From an uncultured Nitrospiraceae bacterium (GTDB taxonomy: Bacteria; UBA10199; SBBF01): 39,892 bases of DNA. The stretch covers positions 1 through 39,892 of the forward strand of contig CAZQCI010000006.1 of NCBI GenBank assembly GCA_964592255.1, in the 5' to 3' direction. This document shows positions 1 through 33,285 of this stretch, in pieces; within the stretch, counting starts at the first letter, position 1, and every line of letters starts with the position of its first letter. The notes beneath the pieces were generated by a model. That model did no database searches. It saw only the letters and a list, made by a program, of their open reading frames with translations, and had not been told where the DNA came from. The translations under genes were made by a program, and so were the position numbers.

Positions 1-120
1 AATTGTTTTAAGGACTGCTCAGACAGTTCGAGCTCTTTCAAAAAACCAAAACATACCATTACTCAATTTTGTATTTTATTGATTTGAGGCCGGATAAACA
101 GTAAGGAGGAGAACCTAAAA

Positions 121-1038
121 ATGAAGAAAAGTCTTCCATCCAAACTCTCTCACTTAAAAGTATTGGAGGCCGAAAGCATCCATATCATTCGTGAGGTTGC
201 CGCTGAATTTGAAAACCCTGTCATGCTTTATTCCATTGGCAAGGATTCCTCCGTTATGGTGCGTCTGGCGCAAAAAGCATTTTACCCGGCACCTTTGCCT
301 TTTCCATTGATGCATATCAACACAACTTGGAAATTTAAGGAGATGATTCAATTCCGCGATCAGTTTTGCAAAGCAAACAGTCTGCGGCTGATTGAGCATA
401 TTAACCAGGATGCCATTAAAGAAGGGATCAATCCTTTCACACATGGAAGCCAAAAATATACAACGGCCCTTAAGACACAGGGATTAATCCAGGCGCTGGA
501 CAAATATGGTTTTGATGCCGCTTTTGGTGGAGCCCGACGTGACGAGGAAAAATCGCGTGCCAAGGAGCGGGTTTATTCCTTTCGTGACAAAAATCATCAA
601 TGGGATCCTAAAAATCAGCGGCCGGAATTGTGGAATCTCTACAACAGTAAAATTAACAAAGGTGAAAGCATTCGTGTGTTCCCTCTGTCTAACTGGACGG
701 AATTGGATATTTGGCTCTATATCGAGTTGGAAAAAATTCCCATCGTGCCTCTTTATTATGCCAAGAAACGTCCTGTAGTAGAACGTGGCGGGACACTCAT
801 CATGGTTGATGACGATAGGCTTCCTCTTAAAAAAGGTGAAAAACCACAGATGAAGACAGTGCGGTTCCGAACGCTTGGCTGCTATCCGCTTACGGGTGCC
901 ATTGAATCGAATGCCAAAACACTTAAAGATATTATTCAAGAAATGTTACTGACAAAATATTCCGAACGACAAGGTCGGTTGATCGACAGTGACGAGGATG
1001 CCTCGATGGAGAAGAAAAAACGGGAGGGGTATTTTTAA
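121..1038 (+). CDS. cysD: sulfate adenylyltransferase subunit 2 (CysD)
   Basis: 305-aa ORF with the PP-loop (SIGKDS) of the PAPS-reductase/ATP-sulfurylase small-subunit fold and CysD-like sequence end to end. An AGGAGG RBS precedes the ATG. Confidence 0.9.
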
Positions 1039-1040
1039 TG

Positions 1041-1136
1041 GTCATCCCCGCGAAGCCCCATAGGGGCGAAGGCGGGGATCCAGGTCCCCAGGGCATGGTG
1101 AACTTGAATCATGGATCCCCGCCTACGCGGGGATGA
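1041..1136. repeat. GC-rich hairpin doublet in the cysD-cysN spacer
   Basis: Two stems of ATCCCCGC / GCGGGGAT. The first encloses an inner GCCCC-ATA-GGGGC hairpin. The second (1114-1136, CTAC tetraloop) has its 3' arm overlapping the predicted cysN ATG. Confidence 0.6.
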
Positions 1137-2578
1137 CAGAAAATATAACAATGCAAGAATCCCAATTAATCAAAAAGGATATCGCCAAATATCTCCGCCT
1201 GCACCAAGAGAAAGAATTGCTGCGCTTTACTACGGCGGGATCCGTGGACGACGGAAAATCCACACTCATCGGGCGACTTTTGTTCGACACTAACGCCGTT
1301 TACGAAGATCAACTGGACTCTGCCCGCAAAGCAACCAAGATGGAAGTGGGGGAAGATATTGATCTCTCTCTTTTAACTGATGGTTTGAAAGCGGAACGCG
1401 AGCAGGGCATTACCATTGATGTTGCTTATCGTTATTTTACCACTGCTAAGCGCAAGTTCATCATCGCAGATACGCCAGGGCATGTTCAATACACCCGCAA
1501 CATGGCAACGGGCGCTTCCACGGCGGATGTGGCCATCATTCTAATTGATGCTCGTTTAGGAGTGCAGCCTCAATCAAAACGCCATGCGATGATCGCTTCT
1601 CTTTTAGGTATTCCAAAATTATTGGTGGCTGTTAACAAGATGGATTTAAAAAATTACAGCCAAAAAGTTTTTGAAGAAATTAAAACTGATTTTCAAAAAA
1701 TTGTTTCAACCATGACTTTTAAAGAAGTGGCTTTTTTTCCGGTGAGCGCCCTCAAGGGTGATAACGTTGCTGAAAAAAGTAAGAACATGCCTTGGTTTAA
1801 AAAAGGAACCGTTCTTAATTTTTTAGAAACAACACCTCTGATCCGGCATACGTCTCAAAGAGATTTGTTTTTTCCAGTTCAGTATGTTCTTCGGCCGGAT
1901 CTTAATTTTAGGGGTTATGCGGGGCAAATTGCCAGTGGTTCTGTTAACGTTGGTGATGAAGTGATGGTGCTGCCCGCCGGAAAAGTAAGCCGGGTTAAAT
2001 CCATTGTCACTTACGATGGAAAAATAAAATCAGCCAGCGAGCCACAATCGGTTGTGCTCACTCTCACCGATGAAGTCGACATCAGCCGTGGGGATGTGCT
2101 GGTGCATAAGAACAATCATTTTAGAGTTAGCCGCCAATTAAAAGCTGATGTCGTATGGATGAACGAAACACCACTTAAACTCAAGCATCCTTACTGGATT
2201 AAACAAGCTTCAAGTTTAGTGACGGGTTCTTTTACAAGTGTGGATCAAGGTCTTGACATCAATACGTTAGAAACCATTTCCGTCACCACCCTCAATCTTA
2301 ACGACATTGGCGAAGTCACTCTTAATTTGAGTCGTCCGTTGGTATTTGAGAATTATGAAAAAAATCGGCAGGCGGGTGCTTTCATCATCATCGACCGTCT
2401 TACCAATGCTACAATGGGTGCGGGGATGGTCTCCAGTGTTTTGGACAATACTATTTTGGATGAAAACGCAACAATGCCGATGGATCAGTTTCTTACTTCA
2501 TTAATCGACGAGAGATCGAGTGAGTCTGAAAAAGCCGACAAAATTATTTCTTATCTGCAACAAAGAAAATTTTTGTAA
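1133..2578 (+). CDS. cysN: sulfate adenylyltransferase subunit 1, GTPase (CysN)
   Basis: P-loop GSVDDGKST, DTPGH, NKMD GTPase motifs and EF-Tu-like domains typical of CysN. The start could instead be the ATG at 1150. Confidence 0.9.
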   Translation: MTENITMQESQLIKKDIAKYLRLHQEKELLRFTTAGSVDDGKSTLIGRLLFDTNAVYEDQLDSARKATKMEVGEDIDLSLLTDGLKAEREQGITIDVAYRYFTTAKRKFIIADTPGHVQYTRNMATGASTADVAIILIDARLGVQPQSKRHAMIASLLGIPKLLVAVNKMDLKNYSQKVFEEIKTDFQKIVSTMTFKEVAFFPVSALKGDNVAEKSKNMPWFKKGTVLNFLETTPLIRHTSQRDLFFPVQYVLRPDLNFRGYAGQIASGSVNVGDEVMVLPAGKVSRVKSIVTYDGKIKSASEPQSVVLTLTDEVDISRGDVLVHKNNHFRVSRQLKADVVWMNETPLKLKHPYWIKQASSLVTGSFTSVDQGLDINTLETISVTTLNLNDIGEVTLNLSRPLVFENYEKNRQAGAFIIIDRLTNATMGAGMVSSVLDNTILDENATMPMDQFLTSLIDERSSESEKADKIISYLQQRKFL

Positions 2579-2581
2579 GTT

Positions 2582-3421
2582 TTACTGCGGATTCAAAATA
2601 TTCTTAAAAAGTAAATCTAGGTTTGTATCTTCAAAAGGAATGGGAAGTCCTAAAGTCTGTTTATCACTCACCGTATTCCATGTGTCATTTATTTTAGAAA
2701 AAACAAATTCTGTCCATAAAATCTGTCCGTTGGCTAGCGTTGGCAAGGCAAGCATAATGCGTTCAGGATCTTCAGGATGTTTGTAACGAATGAGTAAGGC
2801 TTGTTTTGAATTATCGGCATCTAAAGAGACTAGTTGAATTTCTTGCAATTCTCTCCCAGGAGCGGGAATGGGCAGCATGGCTTGTTGTGGACTTTGGCCT
2901 TTAAGGGTTACGGTTACTTGACCCTGATTTATTTCAAAATTTTTAATGGGTACTAGAGGGTTAATTGTTACGTTTTCTGTGCGATTACCCAGTATACTTC
3001 CAAAAACAGTGGTATTGTAAGGAGTGGGGTTAGTTGTATTTAGTTGGGTTATTAAATTGGTCAATTCTTCAAAATTACCAATAAAAGGAAAGGCTGTTGA
3101 TAAGGAAGAAACCCCTTCATTTTTTAGTTTTCCATCCGGAATATTTTTTCCCGCATCGCCCAAATTAATTTTTTCTGTAGGTGTTTTAAAAAGACATGAT
3201 CCATGTTTATTTTTAAAAGAATATCCCGGATGAAAAGCGGCTAGTTCATCATACGCTTTAGCCAAAGCCTCACGTAAAGTTTCTTTATTACCTGATTGTG
3301 AAGAGTCTAAATCGTTAAAGGTATAAGGATCATTAGCCGTTGGATCGGTTTGAATCATCTGAGCTAATTCTTGATTGTTGGTATGCTGAAGAAGTAATTT
3401 ATTAAGCTTATTTTCTGCCAT
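2582..3421 (-). CDS. hypothetical protein (279 aa), distal gene of the sulfur operon
   Basis: Long ORF with no recognisable motif and no signal peptide. It is on the same strand as and directly downstream of cysH, and convergent with cysN (3-nt gap). Confidence 0.5.
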   Translation of the reverse strand: MAENKLNKLLLQHTNNQELAQMIQTDPTANDPYTFNDLDSSQSGNKETLREALAKAYDELAAFHPGYSFKNKHGSCLFKTPTEKINLGDAGKNIPDGKLKNEGVSSLSTAFPFIGNFEELTNLITQLNTTNPTPYNTTVFGSILGNRTENVTINPLVPIKNFEINQGQVTVTLKGQSPQQAMLPIPAPGRELQEIQLVSLDADNSKQALLIRYKHPEDPERIMLALPTLANGQILWTEFVFSKINDTWNTVSDKQTLGLPIPFEDTNLDLLFKNILNPQ

Positions 3422-3466
3422 AAAAGCCCCCTACTTATGTTTATCGGCAAAGAATTTAAAAAGTTG

Positions 3467-4240
3467 TTAAGAATCCATTTCGGTAGAGTCTTTAGGTTCT
3501 TCAACATGGAGACCACATTCTTTGGAATTGGGATCCAGGGCGTTAAACCACCGCCAGCGGCCGGCGCGCCTTGGTTCTGTTGGGGAAATAGGTGTGGTGC
3601 ACAGAATGCAACCCAGCGATTCGTAGGTCCAGCCGTTTTCGTTCCAGTTAAGTAAAGGGTGCATGGGCACTTTGTTTTTCTTGATGTAGTTGCGTAATTG
3701 TTCTTCTGTCCATTTGAGAAGCGGGGAGACTTTTAAAATCGGGTGATGATCTTCCGGATGATGAATGATTTGAAATTGGGGTGTTTTGGCTCTTCGGGCC
3801 GATTGATCGCTGCGTAGTCCGGTAAGCCAAACATCCACGGTTTTGAGAATTTTATTATTGGGGCGCACTTTTCGTATATTGCAGCACAGTTCCTGTTTTT
3901 CTTTGCTGTCGAAAAAAAGATATTCGCCGTTTTCGGAAATCATTTTCTTCAAATCCTCACCATCCGGCTGAGTGCGTTCAATTTGGATTTTATATTTTTT
4001 TTCTATTTCATCGAAGAGTTTATAACTTTCCGGAAAAAGACGGAGCGTATCCAGAGTGAATACACGCGGGTTAACTTTAGCATTGTGTGCTAAGTCGATC
4101 ATGACCACACCTGTTAATTGGCCGCTAGTGCCGATGGCCGCCCGCTTGCCGAAACGTGAAAAAATTTCGCCGATCAATTGACCCGCATCGGTGATTTTTT
4201 CAAGGTCGTGGATTAGCTCGTTATTGATGATAGTTTGCAA
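3467..4240 (-). CDS. cysH: adenylylsulfate (APS) reductase, thioredoxin-dependent, Fe-S type (CysH)
   Basis: PAPS-reductase fold with the C-terminal ECGLH catalytic motif, plus the extra Cys pairs (CC in ELCCNIRK and CxxC in GCILC) that distinguish APS reductases from PAPS reductases. TTG start. Confidence 0.85.
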   Translation of the reverse strand: MQTIINNELIHDLEKITDAGQLIGEIFSRFGKRAAIGTSGQLTGVVMIDLAHNAKVNPRVFTLDTLRLFPESYKLFDEIEKKYKIQIERTQPDGEDLKKMISENGEYLFFDSKEKQELCCNIRKVRPNNKILKTVDVWLTGLRSDQSARRAKTPQFQIIHHPEDHHPILKVSPLLKWTEEQLRNYIKKNKVPMHPLLNWNENGWTYESLGCILCTTPISPTEPRRAGRWRWFNALDPNSKECGLHVEEPKDSTEMDS

Positions 4241-4251
4241 TACTTTATTTA

Positions 4252-4340
4252 TATAACTCCTCCTACCCTCCCCTTATTTTAAGGGGAGGACTATTTATTT
4301 TCCCCCTCTTAATTATAAGAGGGGGTTGGGGGGAGTTATA
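4252..4340. repeat. MITE/REP-like palindromic element, family A
   Basis: Terminal inverted repeats TATAACTCC / GGAGTTATA flank two perfect 10-bp hairpins (CCTCCCCTTA-ttt-TAAGGGGAGG and CCCCCTCTTA-atta-TAAGAGGGGG). It sits in the cysC-cysH spacer. Confidence 0.7.
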
Positions 4341-4343
4341 CAA

Positions 4344-4955
4344 TCAAATAATTTTCTTTTCTTTTAAAAATGCAATGATCTTATCAACACTATCTTTCAA
4401 TCTTTCCTTTCCCGTCTGGAGAATCAATTCCGGGTTAAGAGGGGCTTCGTAAGGAGAAGAAAGTCCAGTAAAGTCGGGAATTTTTCCGTCACGTGCTTTT
4501 TTATACAATCCTTTTGGATCCCGACTTTCACATTCTTCCAACGTGGCGGCACAGTAAATTTCTATAAACCCGCGTTGAGGGATTAAGTTTCTTACAAAAT
4601 CTCTGTCTGTACGAAAAGGAGAGATGAAGGCTGTGAGCACAATAACATTAGATTCAAAAAATAGTTTGGATACTTCACCAATTCTGCGGATGTTTTCTTT
4701 TCGATCTTCTGGGGAAAAACCCAAATTATTATTTAAGCCGTGACGGATATTATCACCATCTAATACTGTGGCGAATTTTTTTTGTTTCAAAAGAATCTTT
4801 TCAACTTCGTAAGAAATTGTGGATTTACCCGAACCGGATAACCCTGTAAACCAAAGTACAGCACCTTTTTGACCCAGCAATTGTTCACGTTGAGCGGCAT
4901 CGATATGAGCCGTTTGCCGCACAATGTTTTGGCTTTTGGGTTGTTTTTCAGTCAT
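4344..4955 (-). CDS. cysC: adenylylsulfate kinase (CysC)
   Basis: P-loop GLSGSGKST and APS-kinase-wide similarity, at 203 aa. Confidence 0.9.
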   Translation of the reverse strand: MTEKQPKSQNIVRQTAHIDAAQREQLLGQKGAVLWFTGLSGSGKSTISYEVEKILLKQKKFATVLDGDNIRHGLNNNLGFSPEDRKENIRRIGEVSKLFFESNVIVLTAFISPFRTDRDFVRNLIPQRGFIEIYCAATLEECESRDPKGLYKKARDGKIPDFTGLSSPYEAPLNPELILQTGKERLKDSVDKIIAFLKEKKII

Positions 4956-5319
4956 TATAGACTTTCATTTCACACGATACGCTTTGGCTTATTTGCTGAA
5001 TATCAGAGTTACCGAATAATTTTTTCAAAAAATTTCTTTTTTCAGTAACCACAACTAAAAGATCCACATCAGGGTCTGCGGCCATTTTTTTACAAACATC
5101 GGCATAACTTCCGGCTTCTTGGCGTGTTTCAAAAGGCGCTTGAAAAGTGCGGCATTGTTTTTCAACCTCGTCGATGATTTTAGAATCCGCATCTTGGCCA
5201 TTTTCTTTCACAAAAACAAAACGGAGTGTTTTATTGCCTTCCTTGCATTTGTGAAGCGCCCAATGAAAACCTTCAGTTGATTGACGAGCCGGGGTAATGA
5301 TGTAGAGGATGAATTTCAA
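4948..5319 (-). CDS. universal stress protein family (UspA-like)
   Basis: 123 aa with an Usp-type alpha/beta fold signature. It overlaps the upstream carrier gene by 4 nt and cysC by 8 nt. TTG start. Confidence 0.6.
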   Translation of the reverse strand: MKFILYIITPARQSTEGFHWALHKCKEGNKTLRFVFVKENGQDADSKIIDEVEKQCRTFQAPFETRQEAGSYADVCKKMAADPDVDLLVVVTEKRNFLKKLFGNSDIQQISQSVSCEMKVYND

Positions 5320-5615
5320 ATTCCCCCCGCAATGGCCGGAACAATACTGATTTCGTCCCCGTCTTTTACTGCAGTTTTTTCTCCCTGTAAAAAACGGATA
5401 TCTTCGTCATTGACATAAAAATTGATAAAGCGGCGCAGTTGACCGCCTTCATCATAAAGACGCGATTTTAGCCCTGCAAATTGAGAGTCTAAGGAGCTTA
5501 AAACTTCACCGACAGTGGTGCCTTTACCTTCAACTTCGCCCAGATTTTGGGTTAGTTTTTGAAGAGGAGTTGGAATGCGCACTTTAATGGCCATAAATAA
5601 AAAGTAATTAGACAC
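5316..5615 (-). CDS. MoaD/ThiS-family sulfur-carrier protein (CysO-like) with a one-residue C-terminal extension (..AGG-I)
   Basis: A core of roughly 90 aa, MAIKVRIP...GEVE...ISIVPAIAGGI, typical of the beta-grasp sulfur carriers. The C-terminus is Gly-Gly-Ile. GTG start with an AAGGA SD, or the internal ATG eight codons downstream. Confidence 0.7.
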   Translation of the reverse strand: MSNYFLFMAIKVRIPTPLQKLTQNLGEVEGKGTTVGEVLSSLDSQFAGLKSRLYDEGGQLRRFINFYVNDEDIRFLQGEKTAVKDGDEISIVPAIAGGI

Positions 5616-5671
5616 CGATCCTTGTCACTAGCTTAAAACTAGGGACCATAAATCAGGGACTAATAACTGTA

Positions 5672-6139
5672 TTAAAGAATTTTTCTTTCTGCAAAATCGC
5701 TCGTTTGGTTGTCCCAATAAAATTCGGAAGAGTTTTTTACTTCACCTCCGTATACCGAGACAACGATATAAGATAAATCTGGAAATAAGGGTTCACCCCA
5801 AGGGGCGGCCATACCTTTATCTTCCGCTGAAAAATAAACACCATGTTCTGGATGCGAGTGAAAAATGCACAAAATCTTTTGATTATTTTTAAGGGCCTCT
5901 TTCTCAATTCGCTCCATATCTTTGGGATCAATTGTGTAGGCTGTTTTAGCATCGCGCGGATAGCGCTGAGGATCTTTCGCATGCACATCATTCTGGATGT
6001 TGTTAACCGCAATCACATTACTGGCGATACGTTTTCCATTAACTAAAGAACCGATGACAAAGCCACACCCTTCGTGAGGGTAACACTTCTCAGATTCTCT
6101 ATAAATGTCCTCTAATAATTGTTGTCGAATTTCTAACAT
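5672..6139 (-). CDS. JAMM/MPN+ zinc metalloprotease (Mec-like)
   Basis: Complete JAMM motif E..HSHPEHGVYFSAED (E, HxH, x7, S, xx, D). It is directly upstream of the sulfur-carrier gene. Confidence 0.8.
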   Translation of the reverse strand: MLEIRQQLLEDIYRESEKCYPHEGCGFVIGSLVNGKRIASNVIAVNNIQNDVHAKDPQRYPRDAKTAYTIDPKDMERIEKEALKNNQKILCIFHSHPEHGVYFSAEDKGMAAPWGEPLFPDLSYIVVSVYGGEVKNSSEFYWDNQTSDFAERKIL

Positions 6140-6158
6140 ATTAACTTTGATAAGTTGT

Positions 6159-6224
6159 CATTGCGAGGCAAGTGGCAACGAAGCAATCCAGCTGGATTAC
6201 CGTGGCCCTGTGGACCTCGCGATG
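6159..6224. repeat. MITE/REP-like palindromic element, family B
   Basis: Terminal inverted repeats CATTGCGAGG / CCTCGCGATG with an inner perfect palindrome AATCCAGCTGGATT. It lies in the spacer between the JAMM and CysM-like genes. Confidence 0.55.
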
Positions 6225-6231
6225 ATGGCTA

Positions 6232-7134
6232 CTACCATTTCATTCCTTCAAAATACCGGTCGCCGTGATCGGGAAAAATGGTGACGATAACGCCCGACTT
6301 TATTTTTTGTGCTAACCGGATACAAGCTAAAAGAGCACCTCCTGACGAGTAGCCAACTAAAAGTCCTTCTTCTTTTCCCAAACGTTCCACTAAATCGTAA
6401 CTGGGTTCGGTTTCTATGCCCATGACCTCGTCCAATTCTGCTTCTTTATAAATTCCTGGAACGATGGAGGTGGGCATGTGTTTTAATCCTTCTAGTCCAT
6501 GCAAAGAATCGGCGGGCTGGGCTCCGACACAATAAATTTTTTTATTAAAATCTTTAAGCCGCCGTGTAATACCCATAGCCGTTCCACTGGTGCCCATGGT
6601 GGCTACAAAGTGAGTGACTTTTTTGTCTGTCTGCTCCCAAATCTCAACGCCTGTTGTGTCGTAATGCGCTTGAGGATTCATGGTGTTATTATATTGGTCC
6701 GGCATAAAATATTTTCCAGGATTTTCCGAAAACAATTTTCTGGAAAGGCGGATGGCGCCATCGGAGCCTTCCATTTCGCTGCTGAAGGTGATGGAGGCAC
6801 CAAAAGCTTTGGCCATTTCCTTGCGTTGATAAGACACATTTCCTGGCATAACCAGTTCCACTTGATATCCTAACGCAGCCCCGACCATGGCGTAGGCTAC
6901 CCCTGTGTTTCCAGATGTGGGGTCCATGATGATTTTATCTTTGGTTAGTTTTCCCGATTTAATTCCTTCCATCACCATTCGGTAGGCGGCACGGTCTTTG
7001 ACCGATCCGCCGGGATTGAAATATTCCAATTTAGCGTAAATGGAAACGGAATCGGGAATTAACCCTTTTACTGTTTCTCGAATACGGACTAAAGGAGTAT
7101 TGCCGATGCGCTCTAATATGGACGACAGAATCAT
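6232..7134 (-). CDS. PLP-dependent cysteine synthase family protein (CysM-like, candidate thiocarboxylate-dependent)
   Basis: Fold-type II PLP enzyme with the lysine motif SVKDR and GNTG. It is clustered with the MoaD-like carrier and JAMM protease, as in CysO/CysM/Mec. Confidence 0.75.
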   Translation of the reverse strand: MILSSILERIGNTPLVRIRETVKGLIPDSVSIYAKLEYFNPGGSVKDRAAYRMVMEGIKSGKLTKDKIIMDPTSGNTGVAYAMVGAALGYQVELVMPGNVSYQRKEMAKAFGASITFSSEMEGSDGAIRLSRKLFSENPGKYFMPDQYNNTMNPQAHYDTTGVEIWEQTDKKVTHFVATMGTSGTAMGITRRLKDFNKKIYCVGAQPADSLHGLEGLKHMPTSIVPGIYKEAELDEVMGIETEPSYDLVERLGKEEGLLVGYSSGGALLACIRLAQKIKSGVIVTIFPDHGDRYFEGMKW

Positions 7135-7136
7135 TC

Positions 7137-7400
7137 TTACCCTTCGATCACATTCATCTCGATGGGTTCCACCGTCAACCCACGCGACTGGAAGAATTTC
7201 ATGGCCTCAGTGACTTTGTCATCTGGCCCTTCTAATTCTACAGCCATCAAACCGACTTGTTCATTAACCGAAGCGGAGCGAATATTGAAGCGGACTTTGT
7301 ATTTGTCATACATGTCGCAAATGATGGCTTCCTTCACTTGCTGAGTGGGGAAAGTTAAATAAACTTTGCGTCGTACGTTTTTAGACATATTTTTGCTCAT
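7137..7400 (-). CDS. NIL-domain protein (87 aa)
   Basis: GLMAVELEGPDDKVTEAMKFFQSRGLTVEPI matches the NIL (MetN C-terminal-like) ferredoxin-like domain. It ends ..VIEG. Confidence 0.55.
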   Translation of the reverse strand: MSKNMSKNVRRKVYLTFPTQQVKEAIICDMYDKYKVRFNIRSASVNEQVGLMAVELEGPDDKVTEAMKFFQSRGLTVEPIEMNVIEG

Positions 7401-7452
7401 CCTTCGACAGGCTCAGGATGTCCTGATGGGGACATGGTGAGCTTGTCGAACC
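7401..7452. repeat. MITE/REP-like palindromic element, family C copy 1
   Basis: Near-perfect 50-nt hairpin TTCGACAGGCTCAGGATGTCC-tgatgg-GGACATGGTGAGCTTGTCGAA that exactly fills the ThrC-like/NIL spacer. Confidence 0.65.
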
Positions 7453-7459
7453 ATGATAC

Positions 7460-8695
7460 TTAATTCGTTTTTATTTTTTCCACCAACTCTTCAAATTCCG
7501 CAAGAGTCGGTTTGATAATAGGCGGTTTACCTAATTTGTCCACCACAGCTTCCTGTGTTTTTAAGCCGTTACCGGTGATACACAGCACAATGGATTCGTC
7601 TTTAGGAATACGTCCCGATTCAATCAGTTTTTTTGCAACCCCCATGGTAACCCCACCGGCTGTTTCGGCAAAAATCCCTTCACTTTCAGCTAAAAGTCTA
7701 ATGCCTTCAATGACTTCGTCATCACTGACATCTTCGCACCAACCGCCGCTTTGAAGGGCGGCTTTAGCAGCATAGAAGCCATCTGCCGGGTTACCGATGG
7801 CTAGTGATTTAGCAATTGTATTTGGTTTGACGGGTTTAAAAATTTCCCAACCATTTTTAACAGCGGTGGAAATGGGGGAACAGCCTGTGGCTTGTGCTCC
7901 ATAGATTTTGGCATCATTTTTTTCAATCAAGTTCAGTTTGTGAAATTCGTGAAATGATTTGTCGATTTTGGTTAAAAGTGATCCGCTGGCCATGGGCACA
8001 ACAACATGTTGTGGGGTGCGCCAGCCTAGTTGTTCCATAATTTCATAACCCATCGATTTGGAGCCTTCGGCATAATAAGGGCGCATATTGATGTTGACGA
8101 AAGCCCATTTATATTTGCCGGCAATTTCACTGCAGAGGCGGTTGACTTCATCATAAGTTCCATGAATGCCGACCAAATGTGTTCCATAAATCATTGTTCC
8201 TAAAACTTTGGTGGCTTCCAGATCATACGGAATAAAAACAAAGCTTTCAAAGTCACCAGCCGCAGCATTGGCCGCAACGGAATTAGCCAAATTTCCAGTA
8301 GAGGCGCAGGATACCACTTTAAAACCAAATTCGCGTGCTTTGGAAAGGGCCACTGAAACAACCCGATCTTTAAAAGAAAGAGTTGGGTAGTTAACAGCAT
8401 CATTTTTAATGTAGAGTTCTTTTACTCCCAAAGCTTTGGCTAGGCGGTTGGCGCGACGTAAGGGGGTGAATCCCGTTTGGCGCCCTACTGTGGGATCATT
8501 ATCAATCGGTAGTAATTCCTTATAGCGCCACATGTTGGGTCCACGAGAGAGAATTTTTTCGCGATTTAAATCTTTTTTGATTAAATCATAATCGTAAACC
8601 ACTTCCAAAGGGCCAAAACAAAATTCACAAACATGTGTTGGTTCTTTGGGGTATTCATGGCCGCATTCACGGCATTTTAAGGCTTTGGCGTACAT
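7460..8695 (-). CDS. threonine-synthase-like PLP enzyme with N-terminal zinc ribbon
   Basis: ThrC-family fold (SFKDR lysine motif) preceded by CRECGHEY..CEFC. From its operon context (SAM riboswitch, NIL partner, sulfur carrier) it may be a homocysteine-forming ThrC paralog rather than a bona fide ThrC. Confidence 0.7.
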   Translation of the reverse strand: MYAKALKCRECGHEYPKEPTHVCEFCFGPLEVVYDYDLIKKDLNREKILSRGPNMWRYKELLPIDNDPTVGRQTGFTPLRRANRLAKALGVKELYIKNDAVNYPTLSFKDRVVSVALSKAREFGFKVVSCASTGNLANSVAANAAAGDFESFVFIPYDLEATKVLGTMIYGTHLVGIHGTYDEVNRLCSEIAGKYKWAFVNINMRPYYAEGSKSMGYEIMEQLGWRTPQHVVVPMASGSLLTKIDKSFHEFHKLNLIEKNDAKIYGAQATGCSPISTAVKNGWEIFKPVKPNTIAKSLAIGNPADGFYAAKAALQSGGWCEDVSDDEVIEGIRLLAESEGIFAETAGGVTMGVAKKLIESGRIPKDESIVLCITGNGLKTQEAVVDKLGKPPIIKPTLAEFEELVEKIKTN

Positions 8696-8767
8696 AGGTT
8701 GATTTGTTTGTACTTCGTTCGATGGCCCTCTCGTTTTTTAGGAGAGAACCATGGCACGATGGTACGA

Positions 8768-9691
8768 TTAATTTTTAAAAAATTCCTCCAAACTAAAATA
8801 TCTTTGCCCGGCGTCACACAAAAACGTGAGAACTTTTTTTCCAGGACCTAATTTTTGAGCCACCTGCAAAGAGGCATGGATGTTGGCTCCGCTGGAAATA
8901 CCAACCAAAAGACCTTCCTCGCGTGACAGTCTACGAGTAGCGGCATAGGCTTCCGCATCGGTAACGGTAACTACTTCGTCAATCAAACTCCGATTCAGGT
9001 TTTTAGGAATAAACCCATGGCCTAATTGCTGAATTCGATGCCTGCCCGGTTTTCCTCCTGATAAGACGGACGATGCCCGTGGCTCTACGGCTACAATTTT
9101 CATCTTTGGGTTTTTTCCCTTTAACACTTCACCCACGCCGGTCAAACTACCTCCGGTTCCAACACCTAGAACTAAGGCATCCACACCCTCTGGAAAATCT
9201 TCCAAAATTTCCACCGCTGTTGTTTTACGGTGGGCTTCAGGATTAGCGGTGTTGTCAAATTGATGTGGAGCAAAACAATTTTTGTTTTTTGCCACATATT
9301 CTTCGGCTCGTTTAATGGCCCCTTCTAGTCCTTCGGTACTGGGTGTTTTGTGGAGAGTGGCCCCAAAACCATAAAACATTTTCCGTCGCTCTAAACTCAT
9401 GTCTTCAGGCATGAAGATGACTAATTTTAACTTTTTAACAGCGCACACCATGGCCAATGCGACGCCTGTATTGCCAGCGGTAGCATCGACGATTTCCGTA
9501 TCTTTTTTAATTTTGCCTTCCGTCAGTCCTTTTTCAATCATCGCCAGTGCAATGCGGTCTTTGATAGAAAGGCTAGGGTTTCCGGCCTCATATTTGCCGA
9601 AAATGTCCGCATTTTTTCCTTCCGCGATTTTTTTTAAGCGGATAATCGGGGTTCTTCCGATCGTATTAAGAATAGAGTCGGCAATTTTCAT
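8768..9691 (-). CDS. cysK: cysteine synthase A (O-acetylserine sulfhydrylase, CysK)
   Basis: SIKDR, GNTG and the GISSGA-like PLP motifs. The F/L-rich N-terminal extension in the ORF track is just the terminator U-tract, so the true start is the ATG at 9691 (MKIADS..). Confidence 0.85.
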   Translation of the reverse strand: MKIADSILNTIGRTPIIRLKKIAEGKNADIFGKYEAGNPSLSIKDRIALAMIEKGLTEGKIKKDTEIVDATAGNTGVALAMVCAVKKLKLVIFMPEDMSLERRKMFYGFGATLHKTPSTEGLEGAIKRAEEYVAKNKNCFAPHQFDNTANPEAHRKTTAVEILEDFPEGVDALVLGVGTGGSLTGVGEVLKGKNPKMKIVAVEPRASSVLSGGKPGRHRIQQLGHGFIPKNLNRSLIDEVVTVTDAEAYAATRRLSREEGLLVGISSGANIHASLQVAQKLGPGKKVLTFLCDAGQRYFSLEEFFKN

Positions 9692-9699
9692 GAGTAAGA

Positions 9700-9746
9700 A
9701 AGCAAACAAAAAAGACAAAAAAAAACCTCTTCTTGTAAGAAGAGGG
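9700..9746 (-). terminator. intrinsic terminator (riboswitch expression platform)
   Basis: Minus-strand hairpin CCTCTTCTT-aca-AAGAAGAGG followed by TTTTTTTTTGTCTTTTTTGTTTG, immediately 5' of cysK. Confidence 0.8.
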
Positions 9747-9868
9747 ATAATTAAACTCTTCTTATCTTTCCCAAACGGGACGGAATTAGCACCTTAATAA
9801 GATCTTTTATAAAGGTTGCTGTGGCTTCAACGGGCCTATCCCTCAGCCACTCTGGATAAGATGTGGCA
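9700..9868 (-). ncRNA. SAM-I (S-box) riboswitch
   Basis: Minus-strand read CUUAUCcAGAGuGGCuGAGGGAuaGGCCCGuuGAAGCcaCAGCAACC ... AAGGUGCUAAUUCC ... GAUAAGAAG matches the S-box consensus block by block (P1 CUUAUC/GAUAAG). It is followed by a terminator whose 5' arm can alternatively pair with the P1 3' strand. Confidence 0.85.
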
Positions 9869-9897
9869 AGCTAACAAACGCTCCTTGACTCTGTCAA
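9868..9897 (-). promoter_or_regulatory. candidate sigma70 promoter for the riboswitch-led operon
   Basis: Minus strand TTGACA, 18-nt spacer, TAGCTT (TAnnnT), about 7 nt before the riboswitch P1. The -35 lies inside the palindrome CTTGACAGAGTCAAG. Confidence 0.35.
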
Positions 9898-9920
9898 GTG
9901 GAATGCCGTAATTAAAGGGC

Positions 9921-13949: not shown

Positions 13950-13963
13950 TTATAGGATGGTTC

Positions 13964-14027
13964 TTCGACAGGTTTAGGGCGTTCTGTAGTTAGACGTGGT
14001 GAGTTTGCTAGAGTGTGGCTTGTCGAA
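13964..14027. repeat. MITE/REP-like palindromic element, family C copy 2
   Basis: The same termini, TTCGACAGG ... GGCTTGTCGAA, as the copies at 7401 and 28981. It sits in the convergent ilvE/pgpA spacer. Confidence 0.55.
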
Positions 14028-14040
14028 TAGTTTTAATTTC

Positions 14041-18715: not shown

Positions 18716-19003
18716 TTATTTTTTCAGACCTAATCTTTTTTCCATTTCTTCCAGAGGGATGTAGTCTTTTATATCCGTATTTTTTTCCCGTTCCAAAGCC
18801 ATGTGACCCAAAACAGTGTCTTCAATTTCATCTAACAATTTTTCCATTTTTTCGTATTCTGCAATGGGAACAATAACCGCAACGGGTTTTTGTCTTTTAC
18901 CCAAAAAAACTTTGGAACTTTTGGCTAGCTTTAAAACTTTATCGAGCTGAGTTCTAAGTTCCGATACGCCTACTAATGTGGATGGTTGATTGAAATGATA
19001 CAT
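18716..19003 (-). CDS. Phd/YefM-family type II antitoxin
   Basis: VSELRTQLDKVLK...KPVAVIVPIAEYEKM matches the YefM/Phd fold consensus, at 95 aa. Confidence 0.7.
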   Translation of the reverse strand: MYHFNQPSTLVGVSELRTQLDKVLKLAKSSKVFLGKRQKPVAVIVPIAEYEKMEKLLDEIEDTVLGHMALEREKNTDIKDYIPLEEMEKRLGLKK

Positions 19004-19123
19004 AATGCGTCACTTGTAACACAAAGTATCATAAAATAGCAACTGAAATACTATTTCATTTATTATTATATTTACAAAATGATAAGGTTCAATTAGTTAA
19101 CTTGTTAATATAATGGAGAAAAT

Positions 19124-19426
19124 ATGTGGCAAATTATCATCGATCCTCTTGTTGAAAAAGAAGATTTTAAAAATATACCGCTAGAAGATCAAAGACTAAT
19201 TCTTAGGACTCTTCGCAAGAAATTATCTCTTTCTCCCGATAATTTTGGTAAGCCATTAGCCAAAGAATTAAAAGGCTATCGGTGTTTACGCGTTGCGGAT
19301 TATCGGGTCATTTACCGAATTCTCCATCAACAAGTTATTGTGAAAGTAGTCAAAATTGGTGCTCGACGTGATGATGAAGTTTATGAAGAAATGTTAAAAA
19401 GATTACCATATTTGCCTGAATTATAA
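19124..19426 (+). CDS. RelE/ParE-family type II toxin
   Basis: KGYRCLRVADYRVIYRI...VIVKVVKIGARRD matches the RelE/ParE core, at 100 aa. It is divergent from the Phd-like gene, with a 120-bp AT-rich shared promoter region between them. Confidence 0.65.
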   Translation: MWQIIIDPLVEKEDFKNIPLEDQRLILRTLRKKLSLSPDNFGKPLAKELKGYRCLRVADYRVIYRILHQQVIVKVVKIGARRDDEVYEEMLKRLPYLPEL

Positions 19427-28975: not shown

Positions 28976-28980
28976 AATAC

Positions 28981-29062
28981 GGTTCGACAGGCTTGCATGT
29001 CCATGGCGCTCACCATGTCCATGGACACTCTGAACGTAGTCCCAACGGGACGAAGTCGAAGG
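28981..29062. repeat. MITE/REP-like palindromic element, family C copy 3
   Basis: Starts GGTTCGACAGGC and ends CGAAGTCGAAGG. It contains a direct duplication of ATGTCCATGG and a GTCCC-aac-GGGAC hairpin. It accounts for the spurious His-rich N-terminus of ORF 28993. Confidence 0.55.
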
Positions 29063-29070
29063 GTCATACC

Positions 29071-29457
29071 ATGAGCAAATTTCAGCCCATTCTCAGCGAA
29101 TTGAAATCGCTTCAAGCTCAATTTACAAAAGTAACCAACCATATCTGGGGGCTTAAACGTTCTTATTTAATCTTGTTACGCCAAGGAATGAAAGAGGATG
29201 ACTTTTTACCACGACGGACAAAGTCTTTGGAAGAACAAGCCTCGCAGGAATTTCAAAAGCTATATTCAAAACTTCAACATATTATCCAAAATCATTTTGA
29301 TGATGAATTTTTCTTGCTCGACTCCGATAGCGACGTGGAAGCTATCCGTATGATTATCCTCAGCATGCGTTATATTCACAATGCTTTTGCCGGTGAACCC
29401 CCTGTTGGAGAAACATTGGCTCGCCTGAATGCAGCGCTTCCATTTTCTGTGTCATAA
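29071..29457 (+). CDS. hypothetical protein (129 aa from the ATG at 29071)
   Basis: ORF with a GAAGGG SD 7 nt upstream and no recognisable domain. The upstream part of the tracked ORF is repeat-derived. Confidence 0.45.
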   Translation: MSKFQPILSELKSLQAQFTKVTNHIWGLKRSYLILLRQGMKEDDFLPRRTKSLEEQASQEFQKLYSKLQHIIQNHFDDEFFLLDSDSDVEAIRMIILSMRYIHNAFAGEPPVGETLARLNAALPFSVS

Positions 29458-30974: not shown

Positions 30975-31781
30975 ATGATAGGGGGATTACTCATAATGTC
31001 TGCCATCTCCATCGTCAACGCAAAAAAATCTTATGCGCATCTTCAAGCTCTTAAAGGCATTAATCTTGAAATTGAAGAAGGGGAGTTTTTTGGCCTTTTA
31101 GGACCCAATGGCGCAGGAAAAACCACCCTTATCAGCTCAATAGTTGGTCTTTGCCGCTTTGAAGGAACTATCAAAGTCCATGGATACGATGTTAAAAAGG
31201 ATTTTATCAAAGCCCATGCCCTTGTTGGTTATGCCCCGCAGGATGTTAACCTCGATCGGTTTTTCTCCATCAAAAAAATTCTTAAATTTCAAGCTGGTTT
31301 TTTTGGTATTCCACACACAAAACGTGATGAGATTATCGATCGCTTGCTGCATCAATTCCGCTTAGAAGAAAAAGCGGATAGCCCTTACTACCGCTTGTCC
31401 GGAGGCATGCAAAAAAGAGTCTTGATTGCCAAAGCTATGGTGGGATCACCGCGTGTCTTAATTCTTGATGAACCTACTGCTGGTGTTGATGTGGAACAAC
31501 GATTTGAGTTGTGGTCTTTTTTAAAAAATCTTAATGCCGACGGAACCACCATCATCCTCACCACTCATTATATTGATGAAGCCCAAGAATTATGTCAGCG
31601 GATCGGTATCATCAATCAAGGTGAAGTTAAGGAATTAGGAACCACCGACAGCCTGATTGATAAGTATTGCGAAAAAAAGGTTATCCCTAATCATATAGAA
31701 CGAGGAACCTTAGAAGACGTGTTCCTCAAAGTGGTAGGACATAAGATGAGTGAGGCAGAAAAAAGATCAGAGAAGAAGTAG
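30975..31781 (+). CDS. ABC transporter ATP-binding protein (ABC-2 type)
   Basis: Walker A GPNGAGKTT, signature LSGGMQKR and Walker B ILDEPT. The start is probably the ATG near 30996. Confidence 0.85.
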   Translation: MIGGLLIMSAISIVNAKKSYAHLQALKGINLEIEEGEFFGLLGPNGAGKTTLISSIVGLCRFEGTIKVHGYDVKKDFIKAHALVGYAPQDVNLDRFFSIKKILKFQAGFFGIPHTKRDEIIDRLLHQFRLEEKADSPYYRLSGGMQKRVLIAKAMVGSPRVLILDEPTAGVDVEQRFELWSFLKNLNADGTTIILTTHYIDEAQELCQRIGIINQGEVKELGTTDSLIDKYCEKKVIPNHIERGTLEDVFLKVVGHKMSEAEKRSEKK

Positions 31782-31879
31782 ATTGTTTTATTCCAATTTC
31801 TTCGGAACTCCTTGTCCGCCAAAGAAGGCGGACTCGTCAAACAGCCGAAGAAATTTCCACAAAACAATCTACTTCTTCT
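31771..31879. repeat. long inverted-repeat element (family D) between the ABC ATPase and permease genes
   Basis: 35-nt arms AGAAGAAGTAGATTGTTTTATTCCAATTTCTTCGG / CCGAAGAAATTTCCACAAAACAATCTACTTCTTCT (only a 5-nt central mismatch) around a GTCCGCC-aaagaa-GGCGGAC hairpin. The left arm overlaps the ATPase stop codon. Confidence 0.65.
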
Positions 31880-31894
31880 CTGATCTATAGTGAT

Positions 31895-32699: not shown

Positions 32700-32906
32700 G
32701 TGAGTTCAAAAACAACCCAGCCTGTTACCGTTCGGTTTTCCATAAAAGAACTTAAAATGCTGAAAAGGGTTTCGGGGAAAAAAACCAAATCCGAAGCCAT
32801 TCGCACTCTTTTGCTTCAAGAAGTTGAGCGTCAAAACCAGATTGAGCTTGGGAAAAAAATTTACGGCAAAATGAAACCCTCCGACTTTGATGATCGCCTT
32901 ATTTGA
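32700..32906 (+). CDS. vapB: ribbon-helix-helix antitoxin (VapB/CopG-like)
   Basis: 68 aa with an N-terminal beta-strand (VTVRFSIKELKMLKRV) followed by two helices. It is immediately upstream of, and overlaps, the PIN toxin gene. Confidence 0.65.
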   Translation: MSSKTTQPVTVRFSIKELKMLKRVSGKKTKSEAIRTLLLQEVERQNQIELGKKIYGKMKPSDFDDRLI

Positions 32907-33285
32907 TACTAACATTTATATCGACGAATTAATCGGCCGTCTTCCGGCAGGGAAATTCAACAAATGGCGCTTGCAATACATCCTCCGCCTTTCTCCCGTT
33001 GTTTACCATGAATTGCTCAGAGGGGCCCGTAATCTTTCCCTCATCCACGAAATTCGGCAAAAGACACTTTTATTACCTGCTCCCAGTTTCACTATGTGGG
33101 AAAAAAGCGCATATATCTTAAGACATTTTCGTGAAAAATTCGGTTCTTCCGAAGAATTGCACAAACTCCAAAACGATATCCTCATTGCTTTATCAGCACG
33201 GGAAAATGGAGCTCTTCTTATTACACGAGACAAGCATTTTAAACAAATAGCCGATTTTTTGGCTTTTTCTTACCTTATTGTTTAA
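32890..33285 (+). CDS. vapC: PIN-domain ribonuclease toxin (VapC)
   Basis: Begins with the PIN motif LFDTNIYID. It has conserved acidic residues and the LITRD motif near the C-terminus. It overlaps vapB by 17 nt. Confidence 0.75.
   Translation: MIALFDTNIYIDELIGRLPAGKFNKWRLQYILRLSPVVYHELLRGARNLSLIHEIRQKTLLLPAPSFTMWEKSAYILRHFREKFGSSEELHKLQNDILIALSARENGALLITRDKHFKQIADFLAFSYLIV

Follow-up and report, generated by a model that had tools for sequence, protein, structure and literature searches.

The window analyzed here is a whole 39.9-kb contig (CAZQCI010000006.1; 39,892 nucleotides) from a metagenome-assembled genome (MAG) of an uncultured Nitrospiraceae bacterium, whose nearest relatives are labelled Deltaproteobacteria bacterium. 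Three of its intergenic sites carry copies of a single hairpin-forming repeat, here called Family C; one copy is intact and the other two are decayed. We consider it rather likely that Family C is a selfish palindromic intergenic repeat resembling repetitive extragenic palindromes (REP), bacterial interspersed mosaic elements (BIME) and REP doublets forming hairpins (REPIN), and that it is moved in trans by an enzyme whose existence we infer. Three of the small intergenic "signals" of the window then appear as junk-like repeat copies and not as dedicated regulators. Three copies on one contig are ordinary; the wider family is moderately surprising.

Three copies of one repeat in the window

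The preliminary description of this DNA had reported three hairpin elements with common termini, and all three were recovered at their places. The number of TTCGACARG motifs in the window was compared with expectation and with 100 shuffles, and it lay far above expectation: seven exact matches were found against 0.77 expected, and seven or more were reached in none of the 100 shuffles. Two of the seven sites (18296 and 27410) are inside coding sequence and are chance occurrences. The paired pattern TTCGACARG-N25-55-CYTGTCGAA occurred twice, with 0.00 expected. The copies and their parts are:

7398 to 7455, no strand: copy 1, the intact element including its outer CAT/ATG pairs (exact match to the family pattern, fold and profile hidden Markov model, HMM)
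7403 to 7415, plus strand: left ("alpha") arm core of copy 1, the 13-mer TTCGACAGGCTCA, with brackets CC (7401-7402) and GG (7416-7417)
7438 to 7450, minus strand: right ("beta") arm core of copy 1, a 13-mer reading TTCGACAAGCTCA, with brackets GG and CC
7418 to 7435, no strand: lineage-specific inner stem-loop of copy 1 (ATGTCC/GGACAT), from the fold and from the subfamily stem in four metagenome contigs
13962 to 14029, no strand: copy 2, decayed, oriented as copy 1 (paired termini, internal motifs)
28981 to 29063, no strand: copy 3, decayed, inverted, with GG...GG flanks (paired termini, internal motifs, HMM arm)
28997 to 29024, plus strand: direct duplication of ATGTCCATGG within copy 3 (28997-29006 and 29015-29024), from comparison with the minus strand of copy 1
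1083 to 1112, no strand: possible fourth copy, internally deleted (CCAGGTCCCCAGGGCATGGTGAACTTGAATCATGG), assigned by eye only

Copy 1 reads, from left to right, CATCC, TTCGACAGGCTCA, GG, ATGTCC-TGATGG-GGACAT, GG, TGAGCTTGTCGAA, CC and ATG. Its predicted fold has a free energy of -32.3 kcal/mol (z = -5.7) when the plus strand is folded and of -26.4 kcal/mol (z = -5.0) for the minus strand, and consists of 13 core pairs, a 2x2 G.G (or C.C) mismatch and a 7-bp inner stem; outside the core a second 2x2 mismatch is followed by three outer pairs. Copy 2, between convergent aminotransferase-IV and PgpA genes, has three mismatches in the left arm and a partly duplicated right arm (GGTGAGTTTG / GACGTGGTGAGTTTG ... 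GTGTGGCTTGTCGAA). Copy 3 has an EF-G paralogue on one side and, on the other, an orphan open reading frame (ORF) of 128 amino acids, for which no homologue was present among 5.8 billion proteins. Read on the minus strand, copy 3 resembles copy 1 on the plus strand. One of its arms contains a 20-nt insertion including a small hairpin (29039-29051); the other carries the ATGTCCATGG duplication, which had been noticed before, was confirmed here, and is inner-stem sequence of the subfamily duplicated together with part of the arm. At the right end of copy 3, which is oriented opposite to copies 1 and 2, only GTCGAA is left of CYTGTCGAA.

Profile HMMs of the arms matched copy 1 with E = 3e-8 and 1e-8, the best arm of copy 3 (28979-28993, minus strand) with E = 0.004 and the arms of copy 2 with E = 0.4-0.9 each. 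The folds of copies 2 and 3 are no more stable than those of shuffled sequence (z = -1.9 and -0.1, respectively). Both copies were accepted as relics on their paired termini and internal motifs (GACGTGGTGAG; GGACATGGTGAGC) and not on score alone. Neither flanking direct repeats nor outer terminal inverted repeats (TIRs) were found at the window copies.

A unit consisting of one arm

The anatomy of the family was derived from 131 exact elements, the pairing from a gapless alignment of 99 sequences and the arm brackets from 862 kb of loci. An arm consists of the 13-mer TTCGACARGCTCA, complementary dinucleotide brackets and short, lineage-specific covarying stems; two arms placed head to head around a small stem-loop form an element of 50-70 nt that makes one long single-strand hairpin, with the consensus C-R-Y-CC TTCGACARGCTCA GG R-Y-G-A ... 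T-C-R-T GG TGAGCYTGTCGAA CC A-Y-G-A. The two arm types differ only by their flipped closing dinucleotides. Around the 13-mer the brackets were CC..GG in 153 cases, GG..CC in 133 and GC..GC in 5, always mutually complementary, and 63 arms occurred alone with their own stems or in tandem arrays with periods of 21, 23 or 57 nt. In viral contigs the arms were combined as alpha/beta (5), alpha/alpha (4) and beta/beta (1). As solo arms, arrays and all combinations exist, the unit is the arm, and the element of the preliminary description is a head-to-head dimer; its "termini" are not transposon ends but the 13-nt cores of two arms, which also occur solo and in tandem. A heterodimer rule, by which alpha would always stand with beta and so avoid a perfect palindrome, was rejected on account of the alpha/alpha and beta/beta elements. 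Tandem arrays of single arms were seen in loci L101 (about 143-260), L059 (about 5275-5560) and L074 (416-530). Such arrays are not predicted by simple inverted-dimer models and suggest slippage or unit-wise amplification.

Two pairing schemes are both supported by the alignment. With the element as one long hairpin, 85.7% of the alignment cells are paired, the CC.CC and GG.GG mismatches are conserved, and pairing in the inner stem amounts to 82-94%, double changes being numerous (one pair, for example, is GC 34, AU 32 and CG 16 times). With each arm folded on itself, the 13-mer becomes a loop closed by CC:GG or GG:CC and by a covarying third pair; its closing column 8/26 is UA 52, CG 32 and GC 3 times, 88% Watson-Crick, whereas the partner of the same base in the long hairpin pairs in only 55%. 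At position 8 (R/Y), the two arms do not complement each other in 63% of elements. A fold into two neighbouring hairpins whose loops are complementary was rejected as the dominant one for the dimer, as its energy is far worse than that of the long hairpin (-11 vs -35 kcal/mol for copy 1). The two-hairpin fold is still relevant to solo arms, which fold as a small stem-loop of -12 to -16 kcal/mol, and could explain why the brackets are conserved. Insertion of the 13-mer into ready-made palindromes centred on CCGG or GGCC was also rejected: empty sites numbered 34 against 38 expected and 7 against 6 expected. Empty palindromes are not enriched, and therefore the stems belong to the element. The stretch GGCTCAGG-RYGAACG seems to resemble the 5' end of 16S rRNA immediately past primer 27F; as no more than about 12 of its positions are conserved throughout the family, we take this to be a coincidence.

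A core common to many phyla

Viral contigs and contigs of one genome per species were scanned with the pattern TTCGACARGCTCAGG-N8-38-GGTGAGCYTGTCGAA, in which exact cores were required. At least 120 loci in more than 12 phyla matched among the one-genome-per-species contigs, so that the family is real and has further copies with conserved termini elsewhere; a few isolates were among the matches listed. These matches included Alpha-, Beta- and Gammaproteobacteria, Syntrophales, Desulfuromonadales and Anaeromyxobacter; Nitrospirota, Dehalococcoidia, Anaerolineae (Chloroflexota), Patescibacteria, Dependentiae and Bacteroidota; and Verrucomicrobiota, Tectomicrobia, Nitrospinota and Marinimicrobia. 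Among the viral contigs, four matched. One 25-kb contig classed as viral in IMG/VR (3300001765_000109; L012/L013) holds at least eight Family C elements with the conserved flank GGCAAACGACAAAACG, spaced by about 60-70 nt in a local cluster. The ATGTCC/GGACAT inner-stem variant of the window was found in four metagenome contigs with unrelated flanks.

Family C was found neither in 5,426 E. coli genomes nor in 50,697 phage records. Of 72,556 plasmid records six carry it, every one a large chromid; the chromid of Comamonas endophytica has 18 Family C places in 647 kb. Rfam 15 contains no match, the best hit up to E = 10 scoring 15 bits against a threshold of 97 bits. In the searchable text of the literature, figures not being covered, we found no description of the family, and its arm sequences and the translations VSLSNHE and FDKLRM drew none either. 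The core appears letter-for-letter identical across more than 12 phyla and yet patchily distributed. Family C repeats are also likely to give rise to spurious small ORFs when MAGs are annotated.

Copy 1 at the ThrC-NIL junction

Copy 1 sits within a minus-strand operon headed by a SAM (S-adenosylmethionine) riboswitch (9759-9862, minus strand, 85 bits), the only match in the window above the Rfam 15 gathering threshold. The order of the operon is a pyridoxal phosphate (PLP) enzyme, a ThrC-like enzyme with a NinF-like zinc ribbon, a NIL-domain protein, a PLP enzyme, JAB and a ThiS-like protein. The preliminary description had copy 1 exactly filling the spacer between the ThrC-like and NIL genes, which is essentially right: the element occupies the 59 nt that separate the ThrC-like stop (7460) and the first NIL ATG (7400). 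The features of the junction are:

7460 to 8695, minus strand: gene of the ThrC-like PLP enzyme, its stop being followed after 4 nt by the outer CAT/ATG pairs of copy 1 and after 9 nt by the main stem
7137 to 7388, minus strand: NIL-domain gene, with the start at 7388 backed by homologues
7398 to 7400, minus strand: ATG supplied by the element, from the conserved GG-RYGA flank
7404 to 7400, minus strand: element-borne AAGGA, 11 nt upstream of 7388, a putative Shine-Dalgarno (SD) sequence and the sole SD-like sequence at the junction

The NIL start at 7388 matches the database form of the protein and its homologues (about 83 amino acids), whose N-termini align as M-x-K-N-V-R/K-R-K, and ten relatives start NIL at the position equivalent to 7388. 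The NIL ORF called from 7400 thus has a spurious N-terminal extension of four codons. The ATG at 7400 is not plausible as a start served by an SD sequence, because there is no spacer to the AAGG and because the ten relatives begin at the equivalent of 7388. It is an artefact of the insertion of copy 1 and, as a false start upstream of the real one, leads ORF calling astray. The ORF called from it seems to open with MSKN-MSKN (ATGAGCAAAAAT ATGTCTAAAAAC; 7377-7400, minus strand), the first MSKN being element flank plus spacer.

An earlier suggestion was that copies 1 and 3, both ending in GTCGAAGG and followed by ATGAGCAAA, donate an SD-like sequence to the gene downstream. Both sequences are indeed present at copy 1 (minus strand) and at copy 3 (29055-29062, ATG 29071). 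From the geometry, donation is plausible for two starts, 7388 and 29071, but not for the element-supplied ATG at 7400. At copy 3, GAAGGG ends 7 nt before the ATG at 29071, an ideal spacing, but the ORF there is the putative orphan. The shared ATGAGCAAA is best read as a coincidence together with an element-derived ATGA at copy 1.

Copy 1 was absent from the ThrC-NIL junction in all ten related contigs (NIL 83-93% identical), and no Family C arms were found in 47 kb of the relatives' loci. At the junctions of the relatives the genes overlap by 8 nt at one extreme and are 66 nt apart at the other, and a canonical AAGGAG or GGAG precedes NIL in most of them. Two relatives hold different hairpin repeats at this place (L001 2955-2985; L145 about 1440-1500), one a REP with a GTAG/CTAC foot (GTAAGGGCGATTCATGAATCGCCCCTAC), the other a GGTAGATGG...CCATCTAC repeat. 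The ThrC-NIL junction is a recurrent landing site for repeats.

Copy 1 would have inserted into a normally tight junction and replaced the native SD sequence there. An mRNA hairpin of -26 kcal/mol would now follow the ThrC stop by 4-9 nt, and the AAGGA of the element, partly buried, would stand 11 nt before the NIL start. In E. coli, REPs less than 16 nt from a stop codon depress translation (as cited in PMC12306157). The distance of 4-9 nt between ThrC stop and hairpin falls inside this range, and reduced or ThrC-coupled translation of NIL is therefore to be expected; by analogy, NIL translation is probably lowered or dependent on ribosomes that finish ThrC. Copy 1 may in this way have rewired a translation-initiation region in a SAM-riboswitch-controlled operon for sulfur amino acids.

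Probable turnover of the copies and competing explanations

Family C elements are mostly intergenic. Between co-directional genes 24 were in sense and 25 in antisense orientation, and 20 lay between convergent and 15 between divergent genes. Mismatches of the G.T and A.C kinds were mixed (48/24, 55/86, 44/71, 51/33 and 30/35) and on the whole of similar frequency, with neither strand favored; as there was also no bias in gene orientation, strand-specific selection at the RNA level was rejected. An all-vs-all BLAST of the 534 ORFs within 2.5 kb of elements revealed no gene family in more than six loci. The repeat would land in intergenic spacers in either orientation, with its presence varying at orthologous sites, and its copies would decay by point changes, small insertions and slippage-type duplications. 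The absence from orthologous junctions and the decay of copies 2 and 3 argue for selfish, turning-over DNA and against a conserved signal.

A functional RNA element, kept for mRNA stabilisation, translation tuning or as a ribosome-binding site, is an unlikely alternative. It would fit the position of the window copies, all three of which start at most 15 nt from a stop codon, the range of the E. coli REP effects (PMC12306157), as well as the stable mRNA-sense hairpin of copy 1 (-26.4 kcal/mol) and the GAAGGA that lies 11 nt ahead of the start at 7388 and the GAAGGG 7 nt ahead of that at 29071. However, over the 49 co-directional contexts no orientation bias was present, G.U was not favored over A.C, and the SD-like GAAGG occurs in only one of the two orientations of the element. 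Moreover, Rfam remained unmatched even at E = 10, the copies decay, and the orthologous junctions that lack the element work with an ordinary SD sequence.

Classical miniature inverted-repeat transposable elements (MITEs), the reading implied when the termini were first taken as TIRs with possible target-site duplications, would have TIRs cut by the DDE transposase of a related full-length insertion sequence (IS) and would duplicate a short target. For Family C itself this is rather improbable. Its arms are inverted repeats, and in Beta- and Gammaproteobacteria the hairpin does reside in a genuine MITE, which has IS5-like TIRs and YTAR-type duplications of 4 bp. There, in Methylococcales, Thiobacillus, Nitrosomonas, Sulfuricellaceae and related MAGs, it is centred in an element of about 125 nt whose 19-nt TIR, GGAAGCGCTGAWYAAGTCC, resembles the E. 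coli IS5A ends (GGAAGGTGCGAACAAGTCC). Of 20 composite copies, 10-12 are flanked by 4-nt direct repeats that are identical on both sides (TTAA, TTAG, CTAG, CTAA, TAAA, TTTA); several of these repeats are non-palindromic (TTAG, CTAA, TAAA, TTTA) and therefore true duplications. IS5 targets YTAR and generates a 4-bp duplication. The composite of about 125 nt is an IS5-family MITE with the Family C hairpin as passive cargo. It was seen in loci L019, L021, L055, L062, L066, L077, L079, L083, L084, L089, L093 and L126, which include MAGs and isolates, and is shared by genomes of Methylococcales and of the Nitrosomonadales type; a single copy was found in a MAG that bears the label Chitinophaga pinensis and may be bin contamination. 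Copies in Alphaproteobacteria and Dehalococcoidia have another outer TIR (CAGGCTGCTGAAAAAG) adjoining CTAG.

The core-only elements, among them all window copies, have no outer TIR, however, and flanking direct repeats were not in excess over a control offset in 128 elements, nor were any seen at the window copies. Solo and tandem arms are not products of DDE cut-and-paste, the outermost dinucleotide is not the same at the ends of alpha and beta arms, and the loci examined contained neither an IS5-family transposase nor a parent IS with the arms.

The 13-mer could also be a duplex DNA binding site for a widely conserved protein of the nucleoid, topoisomerase or recombinase type (compare IHF and gyrase at E. 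coli BIMEs), kept for chromosome organisation. The conserved core between variable stems, the indifference of the elements to orientation and the 63% non-complementarity at position 8, as if each arm were read alone, would agree with such a role. The complementary brackets and covarying stems argue for a hairpin over plain duplex, though, and the distribution is patchy: besides its absence from E. coli genomes and phage records and its presence in only six plasmid records, the repeat is missing from the loci of close relatives, and individual copies are not kept at orthologous sites. We regard this explanation as unlikely.

Intrinsic terminators or chance palindromes are very improbable, since, in spite of the place of copy 2 between convergent genes and of copies 1 and 3 after stop codons, a hairpin followed by a T-run was found at no window copy, copy 1 lies inside an operon, and chance is excluded by the pattern statistics of the window and by the external family. 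An integron attC site was rejected as well: the RYYYAAC/GTTRRRY cores do not occur in the termini (TTCGAC/GTCGAA), the neighbours are housekeeping genes and an integrase is absent.

Proposed mobilisation in trans

For the REP-like repeat that we favor, a trans-acting enzyme encoded elsewhere would probably recognise the core on a hairpin of single-stranded DNA, as HUH/Y1 enzymes do with REPs. Tentatively, the core in the arm loop might be the recognition or cleavage site of an enzyme common to many phyla, with Family C as its horizontally spreading DNA half. A loop serving as the enzyme's site would explain why the loop is invariant while the stems drift, from Patescibacteria to Proteobacteria. 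Such an enzyme would be distinct from the REP-associated tyrosine transposases (RAYTs) of GTAG-type REPs and could possibly belong to a Y1/HUH subclass with no known REP partner. REPs are usually seen as lineage-specific, vertical partners of their own RAYT, and what moves the transposase-less families is an open question (PMC3733652). With a core that is identical and yet patchily distributed, co-occurrence profiling has the statistical power to reveal which gene is responsible, and the 13-mer in its loop is a defined substrate for biochemistry.

Several points weigh against this interpretation. No transposase is present among the window genes and no mobilising enzyme was found; a tblastn search with E. 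coli RayT and IS5 InsH over about 150 loci gave one weak match, a RAYT-like pseudogene in L083 without flanking arms. The GT[AG]G foot is absent from the flank consensus (C-R-Y-C-C on the left, C-C-A-Y-G on the right), and GTAG is absent at the window copies. Some of the apparent invariance of the core is due to construction, as the genome scan took exact cores only, and the copy counts for the source organism rest on this single contig. Movement in this lineage is deduced from one presence/absence contrast, in which the relatives are no more than 83-93% identical in NIL, too distant for exact insertion junctions to be drawn. Finally, REPs are normally lineage-specific and seldom have the same core in many phyla, for which a conserved cellular binding partner could account.

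Other repeats and genes in the window

The window carries at least four types of hairpin repeat, and its genes are housekeeping genes, with no transposase or integrase found among them. The spacer between the CysD-like and CysN-like genes (1041-1137) holds two tail-to-tail REPs of the CGTC type (fold -65 kcal/mol). The right one reads TGTC-ATCCCCGC-GTAG-GCGGGGAT-CCA on the minus strand and fits the published CGTC-1 rules. In the Nitrospirota loci L015, L036, L064, L106, L107, L128 and L132, Family C lies exactly between such tail-to-tail CGTC-type REPs and forms with them a composite palindrome of about 130 nt, for example TGTC-ATTGTCCGG-CTTGA-CCGGACAAT-CCA. The repeat at 1041-1137 possibly represents this Nitrospirota composite with a deleted centre, its spacer at 1083-1112 looking like a Family C element that has lost its middle.

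Two further hairpin repeats are probably the other families noticed in the preliminary description. The one at 4239-4353, in the spacer between the PAPS (3'-phosphoadenosine 5'-phosphosulfate) reductase and APS (adenosine 5'-phosphosulfate) kinase genes, folds with -53 kcal/mol and has arms with sub-hairpins of the CTCCCCTTA/TAAGGGGAG type; the one at 31764-31886, between ABC ATPase and permease genes, has 42-nt arms that are 90% complementary (-68 kcal/mol). Positions 1-9900 encode a complete cluster for sulfur assimilation and thiocarboxylate-type Cys/Met biosynthesis (CysD/CysN-like proteins, PAPS reductase, APS kinase, Usp, a ThiS-like protein, JAB, three PLP enzymes and the NIL protein), of which the distal operon is under the SAM riboswitch. 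Toxin-antitoxin genes of the Phd/YefM-ParE and PIN-domain kinds at 18716-19426 and 32887-33285 have no relation to the repeats.

Comparison with known repeat systems

Family C shares many features with the REP/BIME/REPIN sequences of E. coli and Pseudomonas, which are associated with RAYT (TnpA-REP, a Y1 HUH enzyme). Both are short, non-coding, imperfect palindromes dispersed in mostly intergenic copies and in both orientations; both occur as singlets, clusters and inverted doublets that form a long hairpin with internal mismatches; both have two unit variants (alpha and beta in Family C, Y and Z in E. coli) and cause no target duplication. REPs have, in addition, documented side-effects on mRNA stability and translation. 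In contrast to REPs, Family C has no GT[AG]G foot, the feature that defines RAYT-associated REPs (PMC6006769), and conserves the 13-nt loop of the arm, whereas REPs conserve the stem. Its core is found in more than 12 phyla, while a REP family is as a rule restricted to one species or genus and linked to its own RAYT, and the similarity of REP motifs between distant taxa is generally low (PMC12306157, section 12). No REPtron was seen for Family C in the window or in the loci examined.

Multi-phylum REP families that form inverted dimers and "apparently lack a dedicated transposase" have been described as the CGTC superfamily (Di Nocera et al. 2013, PMC3733652), which takes in dRS3 of Neisseria and RPE-4/6 of Rickettsia. 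Family C is similar in occurring in several phyla, mostly as inverted dimers and with no dedicated transposase, and in Nitrospirota it forms the spacer between tail-to-tail CGTC-type REPs, as it probably does at 1041-1137 of the window. By the published rule, CGTC REPs have a CGTC, TGTC or CCTC tag, an 8-9-bp stem starting with AT, a 4-5-nt loop and a short unpaired CCA tail (PMC3733652). The neighbouring repeat at 1041-1137 follows this rule. Family C, however, has neither a CGTC/TGTC tag abutting the stem nor an AT-initiated stem of 8-9 bp with a loop of 4-5 nt; its inner stems are 4-8 bp long and preceded by AGG. CCA does stand next to the Family C hairpin, as the right flank in 114 of 130 elements, where it takes part in the stem that the arm forms by itself. 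The text and supplements of this survey and of a second REP survey, figures not being covered, do not contain the Family C sequence. Family C lacks the defining tags of both the GTAG-RAYT REPs and the CGTC REPs, for which it was tested, and so falls outside either group.

Bare Family C is not a MITE either. Unlike the IS5-family MITEs, the window copies and most others are a bare hairpin of 50-70 nt without outer TIRs or duplications, and where the two meet the hairpin is cargo and not a transposon end. The mosaic repeats (BIME linkers of E. coli, NIMEs of Neisseria, which are RS units between dRS3, and RIMEs of Rhizobium) are likewise modular, with several repeat types per spacer, but are confined to one genus or family; the likeness seen is one of layout. 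In the hairpins at HUH nick sites, namely the origins of rolling-circle Rep proteins and the ends of IS200/IS605 elements, a conserved single-stranded sequence sits on a freely covarying stem, which by analogy suggests how the core might be recognised. No HUH gene is linked to Family C, and the 13-mer is not known to match any nick-site sequence. What distinguishes Family C among these systems is its conserved 13-nt arm loop, its arm types with flipped dinucleotides, and a core that is letter-perfect across phyla and patchy in its spread.

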